Source: a virus. Taken from it: 22,215 nucleotides of DNA. A model generated the notes under the pieces. The model did no database searches and was not told the DNA's origin. It was given only the letters and a program-made list of their open reading frames with translations. The stretch is taken from the UHGV virus genome UHGV-0087471; one strand, written 5' to 3'. The position numbers were made by a program, and so were the translations under genes. This document shows positions 852-20,880 of the stretch, one piece after another. Position 1 is the first letter of the stretch; every line of letters starts with the position of its first letter.

Positions 852-1151
852 ATGAAACTTAAATATTCTGGCTTAACTGCCAGTGGCAAAACTCGCACTA
901 AATTCATGCGCGGTGATATTTACCGCGACCAGTACGGCGGCACGGTAATGATTAAGGGCGTGGAGGAACGGCGCGTAACCTACCGTCGTGAAGGCTACGA
1001 ATATGATTGCGTGATGCCTGTTTATCAGTTCGATCGTGATTTTTCTCTGGTGCAGGCCGTACCGCGTAACGTGCCCACCAGCAGGGAGAAAGCACGCGCC
1101 AATATTCAGGAAATAAAAAAGATGCTTAACGTATTCAGGGGTAAAAAATGA
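852..1151 (+). CDS. Hypothetical protein (99 aa)
   Basis: ORF with GGAG upstream; stop overlaps primase start (ATGA at 1148..1151), suggesting translational coupling. Confidence 0.45.
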   Translation: MKLKYSGLTASGKTRTKFMRGDIYRDQYGGTVMIKGVEERRVTYRREGYEYDCVMPVYQFDRDFSLVQAVPRNVPTSREKARANIQEIKKMLNVFRGKK

Positions 1152-2896
1152 AACTGGCACCGAACGTAAAAAAACAGCCACGCGGAATAAAACACAAAGA
1201 CACAGAGGTAATTATTTTCGCGGGTAGTGATGCCTGGTCGCACGCGAAACAATGGCAGGAGCAGGATGGCCCCGCATCCGGCGATAATGTGCCGCCTGTG
1301 TGGCTTGGGCCAAATCAGCTTGCCGAACTTGATGCACTGAAAATTGTTCCGGATGGAAAAAAACGCGTAAGGCTGTACCAGGCCGGAGAACTGGATTTGG
1401 TGGAGACCAAAAAGATTGGTCAGAAGCTGGCGGCGGCAGATATTCAGGACGCAAATTTTTACCCCGAAGGAATGCACGTCCAGAAGTGTGAAAACTGGCG
1501 GCGCTATCTGAATGCTGAGCGTGAAAATATTGCCGCAGGGCTTACCATGCCGGAGCAGAAAAATACGCAACTGGCACAAATGGCAGACAGTGAGCGCGCA
1601 CAGATGCTTGCTGGTCGATTTGATGGCGTTTGTGTGCATCCGGAAAGTGAAATCGTTCACGTATGGCGCGGCGGGGTATGGTGTCCGGTCAGCACAATGG
1701 AACTTAGCCGCGAAATGGTGGCGATCTATTCAGAGCACAGGGCCACTTTCAGCAAGCGCGTAATCAATAACGCCGTGGAAGCGTTAAAAGTTATTGCCGA
1801 ACCAATGGGCGAGCCGTCCGGTGATTTGCTGCCGTTTGCCAATGGTGCGCTTGACCTGAGAACAGGGGAATTTTCCTCTCACCAGCCGGATAACTGGATC
1901 ACCACACACAACGGCATTGAGTACACGCCGCCAGTACCAGGTGAGAATATCCGCGACAACGCGCCAAACTTTCATAAATGGCTTGATCACGCTGCCGGAA
2001 AAGACCCGGGCAAGATGATGCGCATATGTGCCGCGCTATACATGATTATGGCGAACCGGTACGACTGGCAGATGTTTATTGAGGCCACCGGAGACGGCGG
2101 GAGCGGCAAGAGCACTTTCACGCACATAGCCAGCCTTCTGGCAGGGAAACAGAACACCGTAAGCGCTGAGATGACATCACTCGATGATGCTGGTGGGCGT
2201 GCGCAGGTTGTCGGAAGTCGGCTTATTGTCCTGGCAGACCAGCCGAAATATACAGGCGAAGGCACGGGCATCAAGAAAATCACGGGCGGCGACCCTGTGG
2301 AGATTAACCCGAAATATGAAAAGCGATTCACGACCATAATCAGGGCTGTGGTACTGGCGACCAACAACAACCCGATGATATTCACGGAACGGGCCGGAGG
2401 CGTGTCACGTCGTCGCGTGATTTTCCAGTTCGACAACATTGTAAGGGAGGACGAAAAAGACAAGGATTTGCCGGAGAAGGTCGCGGCTGAAATCCCCGTA
2501 ATTATACGCCGCTTGCTGGCTAATTTTGCCGACCCTGAAAAGGCACGGGCTTTACTCCTGGAACAGCGCGACGGTGATGAAGCACTGGCGATAAAGCAAC
2601 AGACGGATCCGGTTATTGAGTTTTGCCAGTTCCTGAATTTTCTGGAGGAAGCACGCGGCCTGATGATGGGTGGCGGTGGCGATTCCGTGAAGTACACGAC
2701 CAGAAACAGCCTTTACCGCGTCTATCTGGCGTTTATGGCATACGCAGGAAGAAGCAAGCCGCTAAACGTGGCTGAGTTCAGCAAGGCCATGAAGCCAGCG
2801 GCAAAAGTTTACGGACATGAATATATTACGCGGAAAGTTAAGGGAGTAACGCAGACCAACGCAATTACAACGGATGATTGTGACGCGTTTTTATAA
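1148..2896 (+). CDS. Phage/plasmid primase-helicase (P4 alpha-like / D5-type NTPase), satellite replication initiator
   Basis: 582-aa ORF with Walker A P-loop (ATGDGGSGKSTFT) in the middle of the protein followed by a helicase-like region; size and position immediately upstream of an iteron array are typical of PICI/P4 pri-rep proteins. Confidence 0.8.
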   Translation: MKLAPNVKKQPRGIKHKDTEVIIFAGSDAWSHAKQWQEQDGPASGDNVPPVWLGPNQLAELDALKIVPDGKKRVRLYQAGELDLVETKKIGQKLAAADIQDANFYPEGMHVQKCENWRRYLNAERENIAAGLTMPEQKNTQLAQMADSERAQMLAGRFDGVCVHPESEIVHVWRGGVWCPVSTMELSREMVAIYSEHRATFSKRVINNAVEALKVIAEPMGEPSGDLLPFANGALDLRTGEFSSHQPDNWITTHNGIEYTPPVPGENIRDNAPNFHKWLDHAAGKDPGKMMRICAALYMIMANRYDWQMFIEATGDGGSGKSTFTHIASLLAGKQNTVSAEMTSLDDAGGRAQVVGSRLIVLADQPKYTGEGTGIKKITGGDPVEINPKYEKRFTTIIRAVVLATNNNPMIFTERAGGVSRRRVIFQFDNIVREDEKDKDLPEKVAAEIPVIIRRLLANFADPEKARALLLEQRDGDEALAIKQQTDPVIEFCQFLNFLEEARGLMMGGGGDSVKYTTRNSLYRVYLAFMAYAGRSKPLNVAEFSKAMKPAAKVYGHEYITRKVKGVTQTNAITTDDCDAFL

Positions 2897-2909
2897 TTTT
2901 TTGTAAAAG

Positions 2910-3142
2910 CCCTCTACCCCATCTACCTGAATGAAATAAACGCATATTATTCAACATGATAAGTGGGTAGAGGGATAGGTAGAAGGCTAATAAAACCCCT
3001 CTACCTCCTCTACCATGATTAAGGTCGTTTGTGAGGGGCGGGTAGAGGATGGGTAGAGGGCCACGAAAAGCCCTCTACCCATCTGAAAGCCGCGCCATTA
3101 CTGACCTGAAAGATGATTAGGTAGAAGAGGTAGAGGAGGTGC
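2910..3142. repeat. Iteron array, putative replication origin of the satellite
   Basis: At least 8 copies of GGGTAGAGG / CCTCTACC(C) in both orientations within about 230 bp of non-coding DNA directly downstream of the primase gene (e.g. 2910-2928, 2965-2986, 2996-3014, 3035-3060, 3071-3083, 3117-3142). Confidence 0.55.
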
Positions 3143-3183
3143 ACCACAACCTAAAACTTTTTAAACGAGGGGGGTAAAAATAA

Positions 3184-3498
3184 ATGTGCATACATCAAAA
3201 TCACTTAACAAACATGCCGACCGAAAACATGAATCAGGGGCGACAAATGACCAAAATGCGCAGAGACAGAACAGAACCGAAATATCGCGCGTTAGACATG
3301 ACAGAGCACGCTTTAAAGGTGGCAATCAGAACGATAGACCGCCACGCGGGGGAAGGATACGCGAAAGCACATCCCGAACTGATAAGCGCATTCATGACCA
3401 CGGCGGCGGCAAACTTTGCCACGCTGACAGAACGGGAGATTGCCGAAGCGGAACAGGTAACAACCATCAACGTTAAAACCGGAGAGGTGGAATTATGA
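3184..3498 (+). CDS. Hypothetical protein (104 aa)
   Basis: ORF with GAGGGGGG RBS about 10 nt upstream of ATG 3184; overlaps start of SSB gene. Start uncertain (internal Met codons possible). Confidence 0.4.
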   Translation: MCIHQNHLTNMPTENMNQGRQMTKMRRDRTEPKYRALDMTEHALKVAIRTIDRHAGEGYAKAHPELISAFMTTAAANFATLTEREIAEAEQVTTINVKTGEVEL

Positions 3499-3920
3499 CG
3501 GCACAGATAGCCGCTTACGGGCGGCTGGTGGACGACCCGCAGGTAAAACAGACCAGCAAGGGCACACCGATGACGCTGGCGCGTATGGCGGTATCTTTGC
3601 CATGCAGCCAGGCACAGGACGGACAGGCGACGTTATGGTTATCGGTCATCGCATTTGGCAAACAGGCCGACTTCCTGGCTAAACATCAAAAAGGCGATGT
3701 TGCCAGCGTATCCGGCACGATGCAGGTAAGCCAGTGGACCGGACAGAACGGAGAAACGCGGCAGGGCTGGCAGGTTATCGCAGACAGCGTGATCAGTGCG
3801 CGAACAGCGCGACCGGGCGGCAAAAAAGGCCAGCAGGGGCAGGCCACTGACGCACTGAACAGGGCAAAACAGCAGACGGGTCAGCACGATGATCCGTACG
3901 GGGACAACATACCGTTTTAG
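3495..3920 (+). CDS. ssb: Single-stranded DNA-binding protein (SSB-like, 141 aa)
   Basis: OB-fold-like N-terminal region, Gly/Gln-rich linker and acidic C-terminal tip ending DDPYGDNIPF, which resembles the conserved SSB C-terminal D-I-P-F tail. Confidence 0.7.
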   Translation: MTAQIAAYGRLVDDPQVKQTSKGTPMTLARMAVSLPCSQAQDGQATLWLSVIAFGKQADFLAKHQKGDVASVSGTMQVSQWTGQNGETRQGWQVIADSVISARTARPGGKKGQQGQATDALNRAKQQTGQHDDPYGDNIPF

Positions 3921-9393: not shown

Positions 9394-11038
9394 GTACGCA
9401 GAAGACGTAAAAACGGGCAAAATTCCGGCCTGTAAACGGCTGAAACAGGCCGTTAAACGGTACTTTTCGGACCTTGAAAGCCCCCTTTACACGTTCGATC
9501 GTGAGGTTGTGGAGCGGTTTATTGCCTTTTCCAGGGTGTGCGCGCACGTAAAAGGGCCGATGCGTGGCAGACCCATTGAGCTGGAGCCGTGGCAGCAGTT
9601 CGCCTTTGCGTGCATCCTCGGCTTTAAGGTTAAGGCCACCGGACGGCGCAAATACACGAGCGCCTTTATCGAAGTGCCGCGCAAAAATGCGAAATCCACG
9701 ACCGCCGCGATTCTGGCTAACTGGTTTCTGATTATGGAGAACGGTCAGCAGGATATCTACACCGCAGCGGTGAGCCGTGACCAGGCGCGGATCGTCTTTG
9801 ATGATGCGCGTCAGATGTGCCTTTTATCCCGACCGTTACGCAGGCGGGTGAATATTCAGGCGCATAAGGTGATACACCCGAAAACCAACAGCCTGTTAAA
9901 GCCACTGGCAGCAAAAGCGGCAACCATTGAGGGGACAAACCCGAGTCTTGCCATTGTGGATGAATATCACCTGCACCCAGACAACGGGGTTTATTCCGCA
10001 CTTGATATGGGGATGGGCGCACGTCCCGAAGGGCTGTTATTTGCCATTACCACATCGGGCAGTAACGTCGTTTCAGCCTGTAAGCAGCACTATGATTATT
10101 GCTGCCAGATCCTGGACGGCGAAGAGGTCAACGATTCAATTTTTGTACTGATTTACGAACTGGACGACGAAAACGAGGTTGATGATCCGGCGATGTGGAT
10201 AAAGGCTAACCCTAACATCGATGTTTCCGTCGATCGTGAAAAACTGGCCTCAACCATCCAGAAAGCGCGGGGTATTCCGTCGCAATGGGTGGAAATGCTC
10301 ACCAAGCGATTCAATATCTGGTGTCAGGGGGCTACGCCGTGGATGGGTAACGGTGCATGGGCGGAGTGTGCCGGAACGTTCGCGGAGGCGGATTTATACG
10401 GGCAGGAGTGCTACGCGGGGCTGGACTTATCATCAACCAGCGATATTTCCAGCGTGTGCTATGCCTTCCCGGTCGGTAAAAAGATTATGCTGGTTTCCCG
10501 TCACTATCTGCCGGAATTTCAGCTACAGAATCCCGCCAATAAAAACCGCGCCATCTATCGCCAGTGGGTAAAGGCGGGCTGGATACGCACAACACCGGGT
10601 GACTGCATTGATTATGACCGTATCCGTGATGACATCATGGCGGATGCAGAGAATTTCAATATCAGGCTGGTGGGCTTCGATACATGGAACGCCACGCACC
10701 TGAGGACGCAGTTACAGGGCGCAGGATTTGAGGTGGAGCCGTTCCCGCAAACCTACCTCAGATTCAGTCCGGCGGCGAAATCGTTCGAAGTTTTTGTTAA
10801 CCGGAAGGTGATTGTGCATCGTGGTGATCCGGTGCTGGCCTGGTCAATGAGTAATGTTGTGATGCAGAGTGACGCGAACGCCAATATCAAGCCGAACAAG
10901 AAAAAATCATCCAACAAGATAGACCCGAGCGTTGCGGCGCTGATGGCGTTTGGCACATTCCAGGCAGAGCACGAGGACTTTGCATTCGATATGAGCGACA
11001 GCCACAAAGAGCGGCTTGCGGCGTTTGATGGGGTATGA
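9377..11038 (+). CDS. terL: Terminase large subunit (553 aa)
   Basis: Large ORF with terminase-type ATPase N-terminal half and nuclease C-terminal half; appears to start with TTG at 9377 (GAGGA 6 nt upstream), overlapping terS. Confidence 0.9.
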   Translation: MTAWNKYAEDVKTGKIPACKRLKQAVKRYFSDLESPLYTFDREVVERFIAFSRVCAHVKGPMRGRPIELEPWQQFAFACILGFKVKATGRRKYTSAFIEVPRKNAKSTTAAILANWFLIMENGQQDIYTAAVSRDQARIVFDDARQMCLLSRPLRRRVNIQAHKVIHPKTNSLLKPLAAKAATIEGTNPSLAIVDEYHLHPDNGVYSALDMGMGARPEGLLFAITTSGSNVVSACKQHYDYCCQILDGEEVNDSIFVLIYELDDENEVDDPAMWIKANPNIDVSVDREKLASTIQKARGIPSQWVEMLTKRFNIWCQGATPWMGNGAWAECAGTFAEADLYGQECYAGLDLSSTSDISSVCYAFPVGKKIMLVSRHYLPEFQLQNPANKNRAIYRQWVKAGWIRTTPGDCIDYDRIRDDIMADAENFNIRLVGFDTWNATHLRTQLQGAGFEVEPFPQTYLRFSPAAKSFEVFVNRKVIVHRGDPVLAWSMSNVVMQSDANANIKPNKKKSSNKIDPSVAALMAFGTFQAEHEDFAFDMSDSHKERLAAFDGV

Positions 11039-11328: not shown

Positions 11329-12254
11329 CTTGCAGATATTCCCGATAACGTAAAATTGCGTTGGCTGGCAGAGTGCAAATTTGCACGATGGCCTAACCCA
11401 TTGATTGTTTCGGAAACCTCAATTTGAGGAGGCCGGACAGCGTGACGGAGGGTGACAACCAGTGACACGCCGTGACAAAAAGACGGTTTAACCATCCATT
11501 AAAAATCGACGTGATTTTGTGCTTTCCGTATGAGGTGGCCAGCGTCATTTTTTAGTGAGAAATTCTGGTCAGGGGCGTTGGCTGAATGGTTATTTTATCG
11601 TGCCCATGCACAGGGAGGGGGCGGGTAAAATCTCTGGAGGTGATGCCTGTCAGGACCGCCGCCTGACCCTTCCTCACATCGCCGCAGGTTCGAAAACTTT
11701 TTTTGTGTCAGGTGCGCACGGAATTGATAGATAAAACCTATATTAAAAAATCACGGAAGCCGTGCCATTGCTGGAGCAGTCAAAAATTCCACATCTCACG
11801 GCAGGCAAAAAAAGCGAATTTTGGGCCAGTTGAGGATAAAAAAGGGCTCACTAGTTTTGCACATCCTGGTATCGGGGTCGTCAGCCTCCCGCCAGTAACT
11901 AGGTAACTAATCACGCTGGTGGGCATGATGCCGATGCCGGGATCTCGGTATCGGTTTATCTGTGATCATCCACCAGCTTGATGACAGATAACAGGGAGTC
12001 ATAACGGTTAAAGCGTGTTGATCTTTGTTCGTGGTTGTTCGATATTGTTCGTAAAGCGGTGTAGTTAATGGTGTAGTTAATTTCGCTGTTTTTGACGAGC
12101 TTATCATTTGCAACGCAATGAAAAACAAAGACTAATTAACAAAATGCTATAAATGATAGTTATCTATCATGTGGAGTAGATTGGTCAGGCAAATAAGCTC
12201 TTGTCAGCGGCAGGGCGTTCTGCCGATAACCGTAACCGAAGATGATAACTGACA

Positions 12255-14882: not shown

Positions 14883-15094
14883 TCTGATTGTCTGGTAGGT
14901 TGGTGAAGTCCGTAATCTCGTCAGGGGTTACGGACTTTTTATTTATGGGGGGAGGAGGTTCAGACCCTTTTTTTGATGATGATGGTAAGTTATTGATAAT
15001 TAGTGCTGCGGGTAGGTAAGGATAAAAAAGGGTGGCAGCAGGAGATTGAGATGGTTTTGCTTTATTAACAACGGGCTAAACGTGTAGTATTTGA

Positions 15095-15225: not shown

Positions 15226-15313
15226 TGGCGGTGAGGGGGGGATTCGAACCCCCGATACGTTGCCGTATACACACTTTCCAGGCGTGCTCCTTCAGCCACT
15301 CGGACACCTCACC
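15226..15313 (-). tRNA. serW: tRNA-Ser (anticodon GGA)
   Basis: 88-nt sequence GGTGAGGTGTCCGAGTGGCTGAAGGAGCACGCCTGGAAAGTGTG...GGTTCGAATCCCCCCCTCACCGCCA on minus strand; long variable arm, encoded CCA; clpA-serW gap (344 bp) matches my recollection of E. coli K-12. Confidence 0.95.
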
Positions 15314-19601: not shown

Positions 19602-19823
19602 CATTTGAAGTCTGGTAACATCAATAATCTAATGACACCTGATGTAATTTTGAACCCTGAACTGGAATCAACCCCAAATTTAATGGCAACAGCTATCAGC
19701 CAGATTACTGATGAACGTGACCTGCTGAACCAATTACTTGACCAAGCACAGATGGCCGATGCATTCGAGCAATTTTCCCGAACGGTTCGGACTTCTAAAC
19801 TGGCTTTTGTGAAGGAAAACAAG

Positions 19824-20880
19824 GGCTTTGTTGAATAAATCAGATTTCGGGTAAGTCTCCCCCGTAGCGGGTTGTGTTTTCAGGCAATACGCACGCTTTC
19901 AGGCATACCTGCTTTCGTCATTTTGTTCAGCGCTCGTACCAGGGCCATAGCCTCTGCAACCTGACCATCGTAGTCACGCAGTGTCAGTGAACCTCCGAAC
20001 AGCTGTTTTACCCGGTACATCGCCGTTTCCGCTATCGAGCGACGGTTATAATCTGTTGTCCATTTCCACCGCGCATTACTCCCGGTCAGCCGCTGATTCG
20101 CAACAGCACGGTTACGGTCTGCATATTCACCGGGCCAGTAACCCGCGCCTTTTCGGGGCGGGATAAGCGCGCTGATTTTCTTACGCCGCAGTTCATCGTG
20201 ACAGAGCCGGGTGTCGTAAGCGCCGTCTGCCGATGCTGCCCTGATTTTTCTGTGAGTCTGCCGGATAAGACCCGGGAAGGCTTCTGAGTCCGTCACATTG
20301 TTCAGCGACAGGTCTGCACAGATGATTTCATGTGTTTTGCTGTCAACTGCCAGATGCAACTTTCGCCATATACGACGGCGTTCTTTGCCGTGTTTTTTGA
20401 CTTTCCATTCGCCTTCACCAAAGACCTTCAGCCCGGTGGAATCAATCACCAGATGCGCGATTTCACCTCGGGTGAACGTTTTGAAACTGACATTAACCGA
20501 CTTTGCGCGCTTGCTGACACTGGTGTAATCCGGGCAGCGCAACGGAACATTCATCAGTGTAAAAATGGAATCAATAAAACCCTGTGCAGCCCGCAGGGTC
20601 AACCTGAACACGCGTTTAATGACCAGAACGGTGGTGATGGCGAGATCAGAATAGCGCTGAGGTCTTCCCCGTGATGAAGGCGTTGCCGACTCATACCAGG
20701 CCTGAATAGCTTCATCATCCAGCCAGAAAGTTATGGAGCCACGGTTGATGAGGGCTTTATTGTAGGTGGGCCAGTTGGTGATTTTGAACTTTTGCTTTGC
20801 CACGGAACGGTCTGCGTTGTCGGGAAGATGCGTGATCTGATCCTTCAACTCAGCAAAAGTTCGATTTATTCAACAAAGCC
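19824..20880 (-). mobile_element. IS903 (IS5 family), complete 1057-bp copy
   Basis: 18-bp terminal inverted repeats GGCTTTGTTGAATAAATC at 19824..19841 and 20863..20880; ends match remembered IS903 sequence; 9-bp direct target duplication GAAAACAAG at 19815..19823 and 20881..20889. Confidence 0.92.
19880..20803 (-). CDS. IS903 transposase (DDE, IS5 family; 307 aa if started at GTG 20803)
   Basis: Translation matches IS903 transposase as I recall it (VAKQKFKITNW...). The longest ORF extends 15 codons further to 20848; the GTG start is chosen to match the commonly annotated 307-aa product. Confidence 0.85.
   Translation of the reverse strand: MAKQKFKITNWPTYNKALINRGSITFWLDDEAIQAWYESATPSSRGRPQRYSDLAITTVLVIKRVFRLTLRAAQGFIDSIFTLMNVPLRCPDYTSVSKRAKSVNVSFKTFTRGEIAHLVIDSTGLKVFGEGEWKVKKHGKERRRIWRKLHLAVDSKTHEIICADLSLNNVTDSEAFPGLIRQTHRKIRAASADGAYDTRLCHDELRRKKISALIPPRKGAGYWPGEYADRNRAVANQRLTGSNARWKWTTDYNRRSIAETAMYRVKQLFGGSLTLRDYDGQVAEAMALVRALNKMTKAGMPESVRIA

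Follow-up and report, generated by a model that had tools for sequence, protein, structure and literature searches.

A probable replication origin with eleven GGTAGA iterons next to the helicase-initiator gene of a capsid-forming PICI in E. coli

The origins of SaPIs and PICIs share a common plan: 6-12 short iterons lie just 3' of rep, with a central A+T-rich region that has at least two iterons on each side, the two sides pointing in opposite directions (PMC9371898). The corresponding Rep or PriRep proteins are self-loading SF3 helicases, which bind the iterons via a C-terminal winged helix (PMC9371898). For the element EcCICFT073, plasmid tests have been published (Fillol-Salom et al. 2018, PMC6092414). 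A pri-ori plasmid formed colonies at the restrictive temperature, while its delta-pri derivative formed none. Deletion of ori significantly reduced the colony numbers; abolition was not reported. Capsid-forming PICIs (cf-PICIs) have been defined as elements of 10-18 kb that comprise int, a regulator, a replication module and the genes for capsid, protease, portal, connector, HNH, TerS and TerL, without tail or lysis genes. Helper-phage induction and packaging into its own small capsids were demonstrated for one of them, EcCIEDL933, which shares its int, alpA and rep genes with EcCICFT073. The cf-PICI paper gives no description of the origin.

The stretch of DNA analysed here, hereafter called the window, comprises 22,215 nucleotides of the virus genome UHGV-0087471. 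It is 100% identical to a locus in the chromosome of E. coli SaT040, and the RefSeq annotation of the latter was used to establish the gene content. According to this annotation, an island is inserted between cspD/yljB and clpS. It starts with integrase, a helix-turn-helix regulator, Icd-like genes, DUF4222, a "DNA primase family protein", a small ORF and SSB, and continues with major capsid protein, prohead protease, portal, head-tail connector, HNH endonuclease, TerS and TerL; tail or lysis genes do not show up in the island annotation. The Pfam family Phage_capsid is found in the island with E=1.9e-71. Gene content and size are those published for cf-PICIs, and the island, about 14 kb long in E. 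coli, is classed as a capsid-forming PICI on the strength of its genes.

A 17-bp direct repeat, AATGGTGTAGTTAATTT, at positions 15012-15028 of locus L001 and at 12067-12083 of the window, bounds about 14.3 kb. The first of these copies precedes the integrase gene by a short distance and the second lies upstream of clpS; they may represent the core of the attachment site. A query joined to mimic the empty site yielded contiguous matches in other genomes over part of its length only, with about 90% identity. Just left of the candidate attachment site, to the left of the integrase gene and outside the window (L001 14887-15000), about five TGTTCGCC-like repeats are seen, which resemble the P4 type I sequence TGTTCACC. 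Further to the right, the window contains a tRNA-Ser(GGA) gene (15226-15313, minus strand). What follows up to 20880 is a second block of probably mobile DNA, with a Mor-family activator, a HicB antitoxin and hypothetical genes; it also contains an IS5-family element at 19823-20880 that is about 93% identical to IS903.

A preliminary description of this DNA had noted a 9-bp motif in eight or more copies and in both orientations. With up to one mismatch, GGGTAGAGG indeed occurs 8 times in 2911-3136, on both strands, and once elsewhere in the 22,215 bp, and this total of 9 was reached in none of 100 dinucleotide-preserving shuffles. The count, however, had to be refined. The invariant core of the iteron is the hexamer GGTAGA, present in 11 copies at 2913-3134 and in 3 copies in the remaining window, and the 9-mer form reads RGGTAGARG. 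Three of the clustered cores had been missed with the original 9-mer: AGGTAGATG at 2920-2928 on the minus strand, and AGGTAGAAG at 2977-2985 and again at 3119-3127, both on the plus strand. The Poisson probability of finding at least 11 GGTAGA in 222 bp is 6e-19, if calculated from base composition, and 5e-25, if the background rate of the window is used. Eleven cores within 226 bp are also well in the range of the 6-12 iterons of PICI and SaPI origins.

The first iteron lies 15 bp past the stop codon (2894-2896) of the initiator gene, i.e., the cluster is immediately 3' of this gene, as in the PICI/SaPI plan. Iterons 1 and 2 (GGGTAGAGG and AGGTAGATG; 2911-2928, minus strand) point leftward and form the left flank of a spacer with 76% A+T (2928-2964). 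Its right flank is built from iterons 3 and 4 (GGGTAGAGG and AGGTAGAAG; 2965-2985, plus strand), which point rightward, and at least two diverging iterons are accordingly found on each side, again as in PICIs and SaPIs. There follow iterons 5 and 6 (AGGTAGAGG and TGGTAGAGG; 2998-3015, minus strand), iterons 7 and 8 (GGGTAGAGG twice; 3040-3059, plus strand), iteron 9 (GGGTAGAGG; 3072-3080, minus strand) and iterons 10 and 11 (AGGTAGAAG and AGGTAGAGG; 3119-3136, plus strand). The strand order thus reads minus, minus, A+T-rich spacer, plus, plus, minus, minus, plus, plus, minus, plus, plus. Inside the pairs, the start-to-start distance is 9-12 bp. Between oppositely oriented neighbours it amounts to 22, 32, 44 or 46 bp, which corresponds to roughly whole helical turns. 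Within the cluster, stability is lowest in a 30-bp stretch that falls in the spacer 2928-2964. The instability of the spacer is only moderate, belonging to the least stable 1% or so of the 22-kb window without being the minimum thereof. By its instability and its recurrence in all iteron classes examined, the spacer is a candidate DNA-unwinding element.

The full DnaA-box consensus TTATNCACA was not seen when the segment was read by eye. Rfam, run on the cluster with a permissive threshold, returned nothing but chance-level matches to plant miRNAs, because the cluster contains inverted repeats. A full-text literature search with the motif strings retrieved unrelated primer sequences only.

Downstream of the cluster, a conserved block, TAAAACTTTTTAAACGAGGGGGGTAAAAATAAA (3152-3183, plus strand), terminates with the ribosome-binding site of the gene that follows. 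The latter is a small gene (phrog_1231; 3184-3498, plus strand), whose ATG at 3184 coincides in the alignment with the start annotated for its homologue in CFT073. Its start is ambiguous: the ATG at 3184 is preceded by the conserved ribosome-binding site, PGAP places the start at 3247, and the PHROG profile spans residues 22-103. Only thereafter comes the island's single-stranded DNA-binding protein (3495-3920, plus strand; Pfam SSB, E=1.7e-16). The cluster had been described as next to both a replication initiator and an SSB gene. The former holds, as it lies directly 3' of the initiator gene 1148-2896, but the SSB gene is one gene further downstream and not adjacent.

The product of 1148-2896 (plus strand; 582 amino acids), annotated as "DNA primase family protein", deserves a closer look. 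It is composed of an N-terminal domain (residues 1-142), D5_N, the SF3 P-loop domain DUF5906 and a C-terminal winged helix. Pfam yields E=1.3e-14 for D5_N, E=5e-10 for DUF5906 (SF3 helicase P-loop) and a borderline E=3.7e-4 for Pox_D5. Residues 193-437 match the helicase of SaPI5 PriRep5 (PDB 7OLA, E=7e-14), and residues 486-574 (2603-2869, plus strand) match the origin-binding domain of P4 alpha (PDB 1KA8), with E=8e-6 as a single sequence and E=4e-29 with a profile from 10 diverse relatives. An SF3 helicase with a C-terminal winged helix, as attested by D5_N, DUF5906, 7OLA and 1KA8, is the initiator type of PICI and SaPI origins, and the alpha-type C-terminal origin-binding domain (1KA8) is that of P4. 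Binding of the iterons by this domain is predicted from its homology to 1KA8.

No primase domain can be recognised in what the preliminary description had called a primase. Aligned with P4 alpha, the protein falls short by about 200 residues and is missing the zinc-finger/Toprim primase domain. Pfam finds no match in residues 1-142. The only match of this N-terminus (1148-1573 of the window) is to phrog_2850, a PHROG without assigned function, and with the "DNA primase" PHROGs the alignment begins no earlier than about their position 320. We had considered whether the first 140 residues are homologous to the primase domain of P4 and rejected this, given the missing Pfam match and a probability of 0.5% in hhalign against the P4-type zinc-finger/Toprim N-terminus. 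Since a primase domain is lacking while helicase and winged helix are matched, the gene product is, as judged from its domain matches, an initiator that combines a helicase with an origin-binding domain. The name "primase", an annotation carried over from longer relatives, is probably mistaken. The N-terminal domain is mosaic, being only 40-68% identical between elements whose helicase cores are 93-97% identical.

How common are such loci? A search for homologous proteins was of little help, the best 120 all being at least 97% identical to the initiator, and a scan of genome contigs with the single initiator protein retrieved 3 loci. A sensitive search with 2300-3500 produced matches in 1,721 of 5,426 complete E. 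coli genomes. Among them is CFT073, which matches with about 80% nucleotide identity over gene end, intergenic segment, small ORF and start of SSB. Its locus, L005, is the classical PICI EcCICFT073. The Pri-Rep of EcCICFT073 is 88% identical to the initiator here, and its 288-bp intergenic segment contains 11 GGTAGA cores at nearly the same positions and with nearly the same spacing. To find out what precisely had been deleted in the plasmid tests mentioned above, the cloning primers listed in the supplement (PMC6092414) were mapped onto L005. The pri-ori clone extends from 7799 to about 9909; in the delta-ori clone, the insert stops four bases past the stop codon, at 9601. The "ori" deleted in the test hence corresponds to L005 9602 to about 9909, which matches about 2901-3207 of the window. 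By these primer positions, the tested "ori" is exactly homologous to this part of the window, and the experiment proposed in the preliminary description, to clone the segment and look for initiator-dependent replication, has therefore in effect already been done on a sister element.

For a broader comparison, 80 loci from viral contigs plus genomic loci were collected, and the 330 bp 3' of the gene yielded 51 distinct sequences of the GGTAGA class. In their alignment the iteron cores are the most conserved positions, and the spacers drift. Iterons 7, 8 and 9 have invariant cores, and within the group 7-11 as a whole there is little or no variation; for iterons 1, 2, 5 and 6, conservation of the core mostly reaches 90% or more, with at least 90% for 1 and 2. 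The block 3152-3183 described above is conserved in the alignment as well. Apart from the iterons, the block CTGAAAGCCGCGCCATTACTG (3083-3104), which lies between iteron 9 and iterons 10-11, is conserved to at least 90% in the 51 origins and is absent from the other iteron classes. A conserved hairpin made from this block and iterons 10-11 was considered as well; it forms in the CFT073-type variants and not in the variant of the window, and was rejected.

All of the 70 relatives with a protein identity of at least 69% keep 9-12 GGTAGA. Relatives at 51-55% identity have about 6-11 copies of other iterons at the same position, around an A+T-rich spacer. The Serratia locus L003 and the locus L076, with proteins 53-55% identical, carry ACTGTTCAC, which is the P4 type I iteron; the L078 group and the Morganella locus L004 have GGTGTTCAT or TGTTCAT, and the L079 group has GGTATACA. 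An A+T-rich spacer flanked by oppositely oriented iterons is found in every iteron class examined, and the motifs of the different classes are partly palindromic (GGT...ACC). The 330 bp downstream of the gene in L070-L073 (69-70% identity) look like a circular permutation of the two origin halves, in which the A+T-rich half is preceded by the right-hand iteron group and the AAAACTTTTT block.

A natural replicon swap is provided by L091, a related PICI of E. coli O145:H28 RM12761 (region 1907-3507). Here, a RepA-family helicase takes the place of the initiator, and the genes for DUF4222, the small ORF and SSB are kept with 84-90% identity. The intergenic segment contains six AAAGTGAG repeats. 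The repeats therefore follow the initiator and not the neighbouring genes. Moreover, the product of the small ORF is 90% identical to that of 3184-3498 and yet sits beside a different initiator and different iterons, and it follows that neither this small protein nor the other products of the flanking genes are the iteron binders. The swap likewise speaks against a function of the cluster in packaging or in general regulation.

In all likelihood, then, 2911-3136 is the vegetative replication origin of the capsid-forming PICI, and the earlier proposal of a satellite origin of replication is supported. This reading builds on what is seen in the repeat anatomy and layout, in the position 3' of the helicase-initiator and the domains of the latter, in the homology to the tested ori of EcCICFT073 and in iterons that track the initiator. 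The only serious rival is suggested by P4: the cluster could be a crr-like, cis-acting auxiliary site that is bound by the initiator, and DNA synthesis would start elsewhere. In its position, the cluster corresponds to the P4 crr, which follows alpha directly on the 3' side and for which 10 type I repeats, in both orientations, are annotated. The initiator and P4 alpha share the origin-binding domain, and a deletion in CFT073 that reduced plasmid maintenance, with abolition not being reported, would suit an auxiliary site. We nevertheless consider this reading improbable. A second GGTAGA cluster, the counterpart of the P4 ori, is not present anywhere in the island, even if one mismatch is allowed. 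Further, the CFT073 clone of gene plus segment alone still gave colonies at the restrictive temperature, and the cluster has an A+T-rich spacer with diverging iterons of its own, like the SaPI origins in which melting has been shown.

A mainly regulatory role, with the repeats being operator sites by which the initiator or some other protein of the island controls read-through into the downstream genes, or "handcuffing" sites for copy-number control, is quite improbable. Of course, the cluster is embedded in a one-directional operon that runs from the initiator to the small-ORF and SSB genes without a terminator; the two terminator-like sites in a scan of 2600-3600 are both outside the cluster. 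The iterons of theta plasmids, too, double as copy-control sites. However, the same scan of 2600-3600 did not reveal any promoter-like site, the genes for small ORF, SSB and DUF4222 are retained beside a different initiator with different iterons, and the homologous segment has a demonstrated replication phenotype, with which a regulatory role would be compatible anyway. A role as packaging signal (cos or pac), recognised by the small terminase and HNH proteins of the island, is hardly credible. The island does encode its own HNH, TerS and TerL, and terminase sites can contain repeats; but EcCICFT073 has the same repeats although these terminase genes are missing from it and its cos sites were cloned separately, the repeats change with the type of initiator instead of the capsid or packaging module, and terS is about 6 kb away. 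Equally negligible is a chance or low-complexity repeat without function, for which the shortness of the motif could be invoked. This reading is refuted by conservation and statistics: no shuffle out of 100 matched the count, the Poisson probability is below 1e-18, and the cores are invariant across 51 distinct origins with variable spacers.

If the cluster is taken as the origin, the SaPI/PICI model is the one best supported, and the events may be envisaged as follows. For this element we infer by analogy the binding of the initiator to the 11 GGTAGA iterons, the melting, the loading of the helicase, the point of initiation and the source of the primers. A helper phage would induce the island, and expression of 1148-2896 would provide the hexameric SF3 helicase-initiator. 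Its C-terminal winged-helix domains would bind the 11 GGTAGA iterons, and the pairs diverging across 2928-2964 would place a helicase on both sides of the spacer. The spacer would then melt and the helicase load itself onto the DNA. The SSB of the island, together with the replisome of the host, would copy the excised island. The primers would presumably be made by the host primase, because the island protein is devoid of a detectable primase domain.

The preliminary description had also supposed that the iteron sequence defines the specificity of the replicon. This supposition agrees with the comparisons but is not proven by them: the iteron changes with the winged helix and the type of initiator and not with the flanking genes, but the relationship is confounded by linkage, and there is a mismatch. 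Two positions after GGTAGA, some elements, including the one here, have G and others have A. Among the 29 loci with A542/S545, 28 have the G; the 39 loci with N542/G545 have A without exception. Both pairings of residues and base are found in three different N-terminal backbone clusters. In a low-confidence AlphaFold2 model of the C-terminal 112 residues, which was computed without alignment, reached a pLDDT of 58 and was used only for placing three helices, residues 542 and 545 fall into the third helix (541-555). From the alignment to 1KA8 and two conserved tyrosines in alpha2, this helix is predicted to be the recognition helix alpha3. The winged helices of L086 and L087 differ, up to the conserved WLP motif, solely by two substitutions in the predicted wing, KTRGV to KNRGM; in parallel, some ten iterons in homologous places are changed from GGTGTTCAT to GGTATACAC.

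Spacers and iterons, however, do not vary independently of the protein. The non-iteron part of the origin is 87% identical between the window and L053 and 59% between L053 and L055. As judged from such sequence comparisons, the C-terminal patch travels with spacers and iterons, all three being passed on as one cassette. The covariation of residues and iterons, which we had considered as independent evidence for co-adaptation, was downgraded for this reason: specificity is not independently proven by it, because the winged-helix domain and the origin are linked and move jointly. The one exception to the pairing is L030, an IMG/VR contig, which combines the A542/S545 patch with iterons that are all of the CA type. 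L030 is a natural mosaic, with a short patch in the last 450 nt of the initiator gene carrying the GG-type helix.

What remains are candidates for retargeting. A542N/S545G in the predicted recognition helix may decide between GGTAGAnG and GGTAGAnA, and KTRGV to KNRGM in the predicted wing may decide between GGTGTTCAT and GGTATACAC. It is conceivable, though rather doubtful at present, that one or two such changes in the winged helix retarget the initiator, that the enterobacterial satellites are graded orthogonal replicons and that the C-terminal patch and the origin are swapped as a specificity cassette. If true, classical PICIs, cf-PICIs and P4-like elements would operate on one scaffold, and several islands could coexist in one cell.

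An origin of a cf-PICI is herewith placed at base-pair resolution. The type of origin is known, published and tested; a modest degree of novelty lies only in what looks like a recognition code, in the conserved block 3083-3104 and in the lack of a primase domain. The natural variants of iterons and winged helices offer a panel for studying origin recognition by self-loading helicases and the compatibility of co-resident satellites. Apart from flagging "DNA primase" as a probably wrong name, the analysis leaves the current picture of satellite replication unchanged.

Several better known origins may be compared. Those of the theta plasmids pPS10, R6K, RK2 and F, too, have repeated initiator sites beside an A+T-rich unwinding region and use winged-helix initiators. 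Their iterons, however, are typically tandem direct repeats of 17-22 bp, and their Rep is not a helicase and needs DnaA boxes as well as DnaB/DnaC of the host. The sites here are of 9 bp and in both orientations, and the initiator is itself the helicase; the cluster is, therefore, not an origin of the theta-plasmid kind. A similar design is seen in the origins of SV40 and papillomaviruses, where short repeats in inverted pairs lie beside an A+T-rich tract and two SF3 hexamers, of large T antigen or E1, melt the origin. The origin-binding domains of these proteins are unrelated, however, and N-terminal to the helicase, and the hosts are eukaryotic. The resemblance is one of mechanism only, an analogy.

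P4 shares parts of the protein and of the layout: the origin-binding winged helix and the SF3 helicase core are homologous, and iterons in both orientations are found directly 3' of the gene. The iteron itself differs, being GGTAGAGG here and not the type I sequence TGTTCACC, and the P4-type sequence is met only in the relatives of 53-55% identity. P4 has an annotated ori plus crr, with initiation at the separate ori, whereas a single cluster is present here; the 120-bp duplication and the zinc-finger/Toprim primase domain of P4 are missing. SaPIbov1, SaPI1 and SaPI5 agree with the present element in the origin 3' of rep, the number of iterons, the opposed orientation of the latter and the SF3 helicase with a winged helix. 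They differ by their Gram-positive hosts and unrelated iteron sequences, and their iterons form two simple sets instead of three diverging groups. PriRep5 of SaPI5, in addition, has a primase fused to its N-terminus, which the initiator here lacks.

A close relative, finally, is EcCICFT073. The flanking genes are the same, with DUF4222 upstream and the small ORF and SSB downstream, and so are the A+T-rich spacer between diverging iterons and the conserved non-iteron blocks. There are also differences. The two bases after the core distinguish GGTAGAGG here from GGTAGA(C/T)A in CFT073; iteron 4 is replaced in CFT073-type origins by a minus-strand copy 10 bp further on; residues 542, 543 and 545 of the winged helix differ, the motif being A-E-F-S here and N-D-F-G there; and the N-terminal domains of the initiators are only 68% identical. 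The elements as such are distinct, EcCICFT073 being a classical PICI and the island here a cf-PICI with its own capsid and terminase genes. Judged by sequence homology, the origins of both are nonetheless the same replicon. As a close relative of the origin tested in CFT073, the cluster is a well-understood kind of element, and so comes as no surprise.
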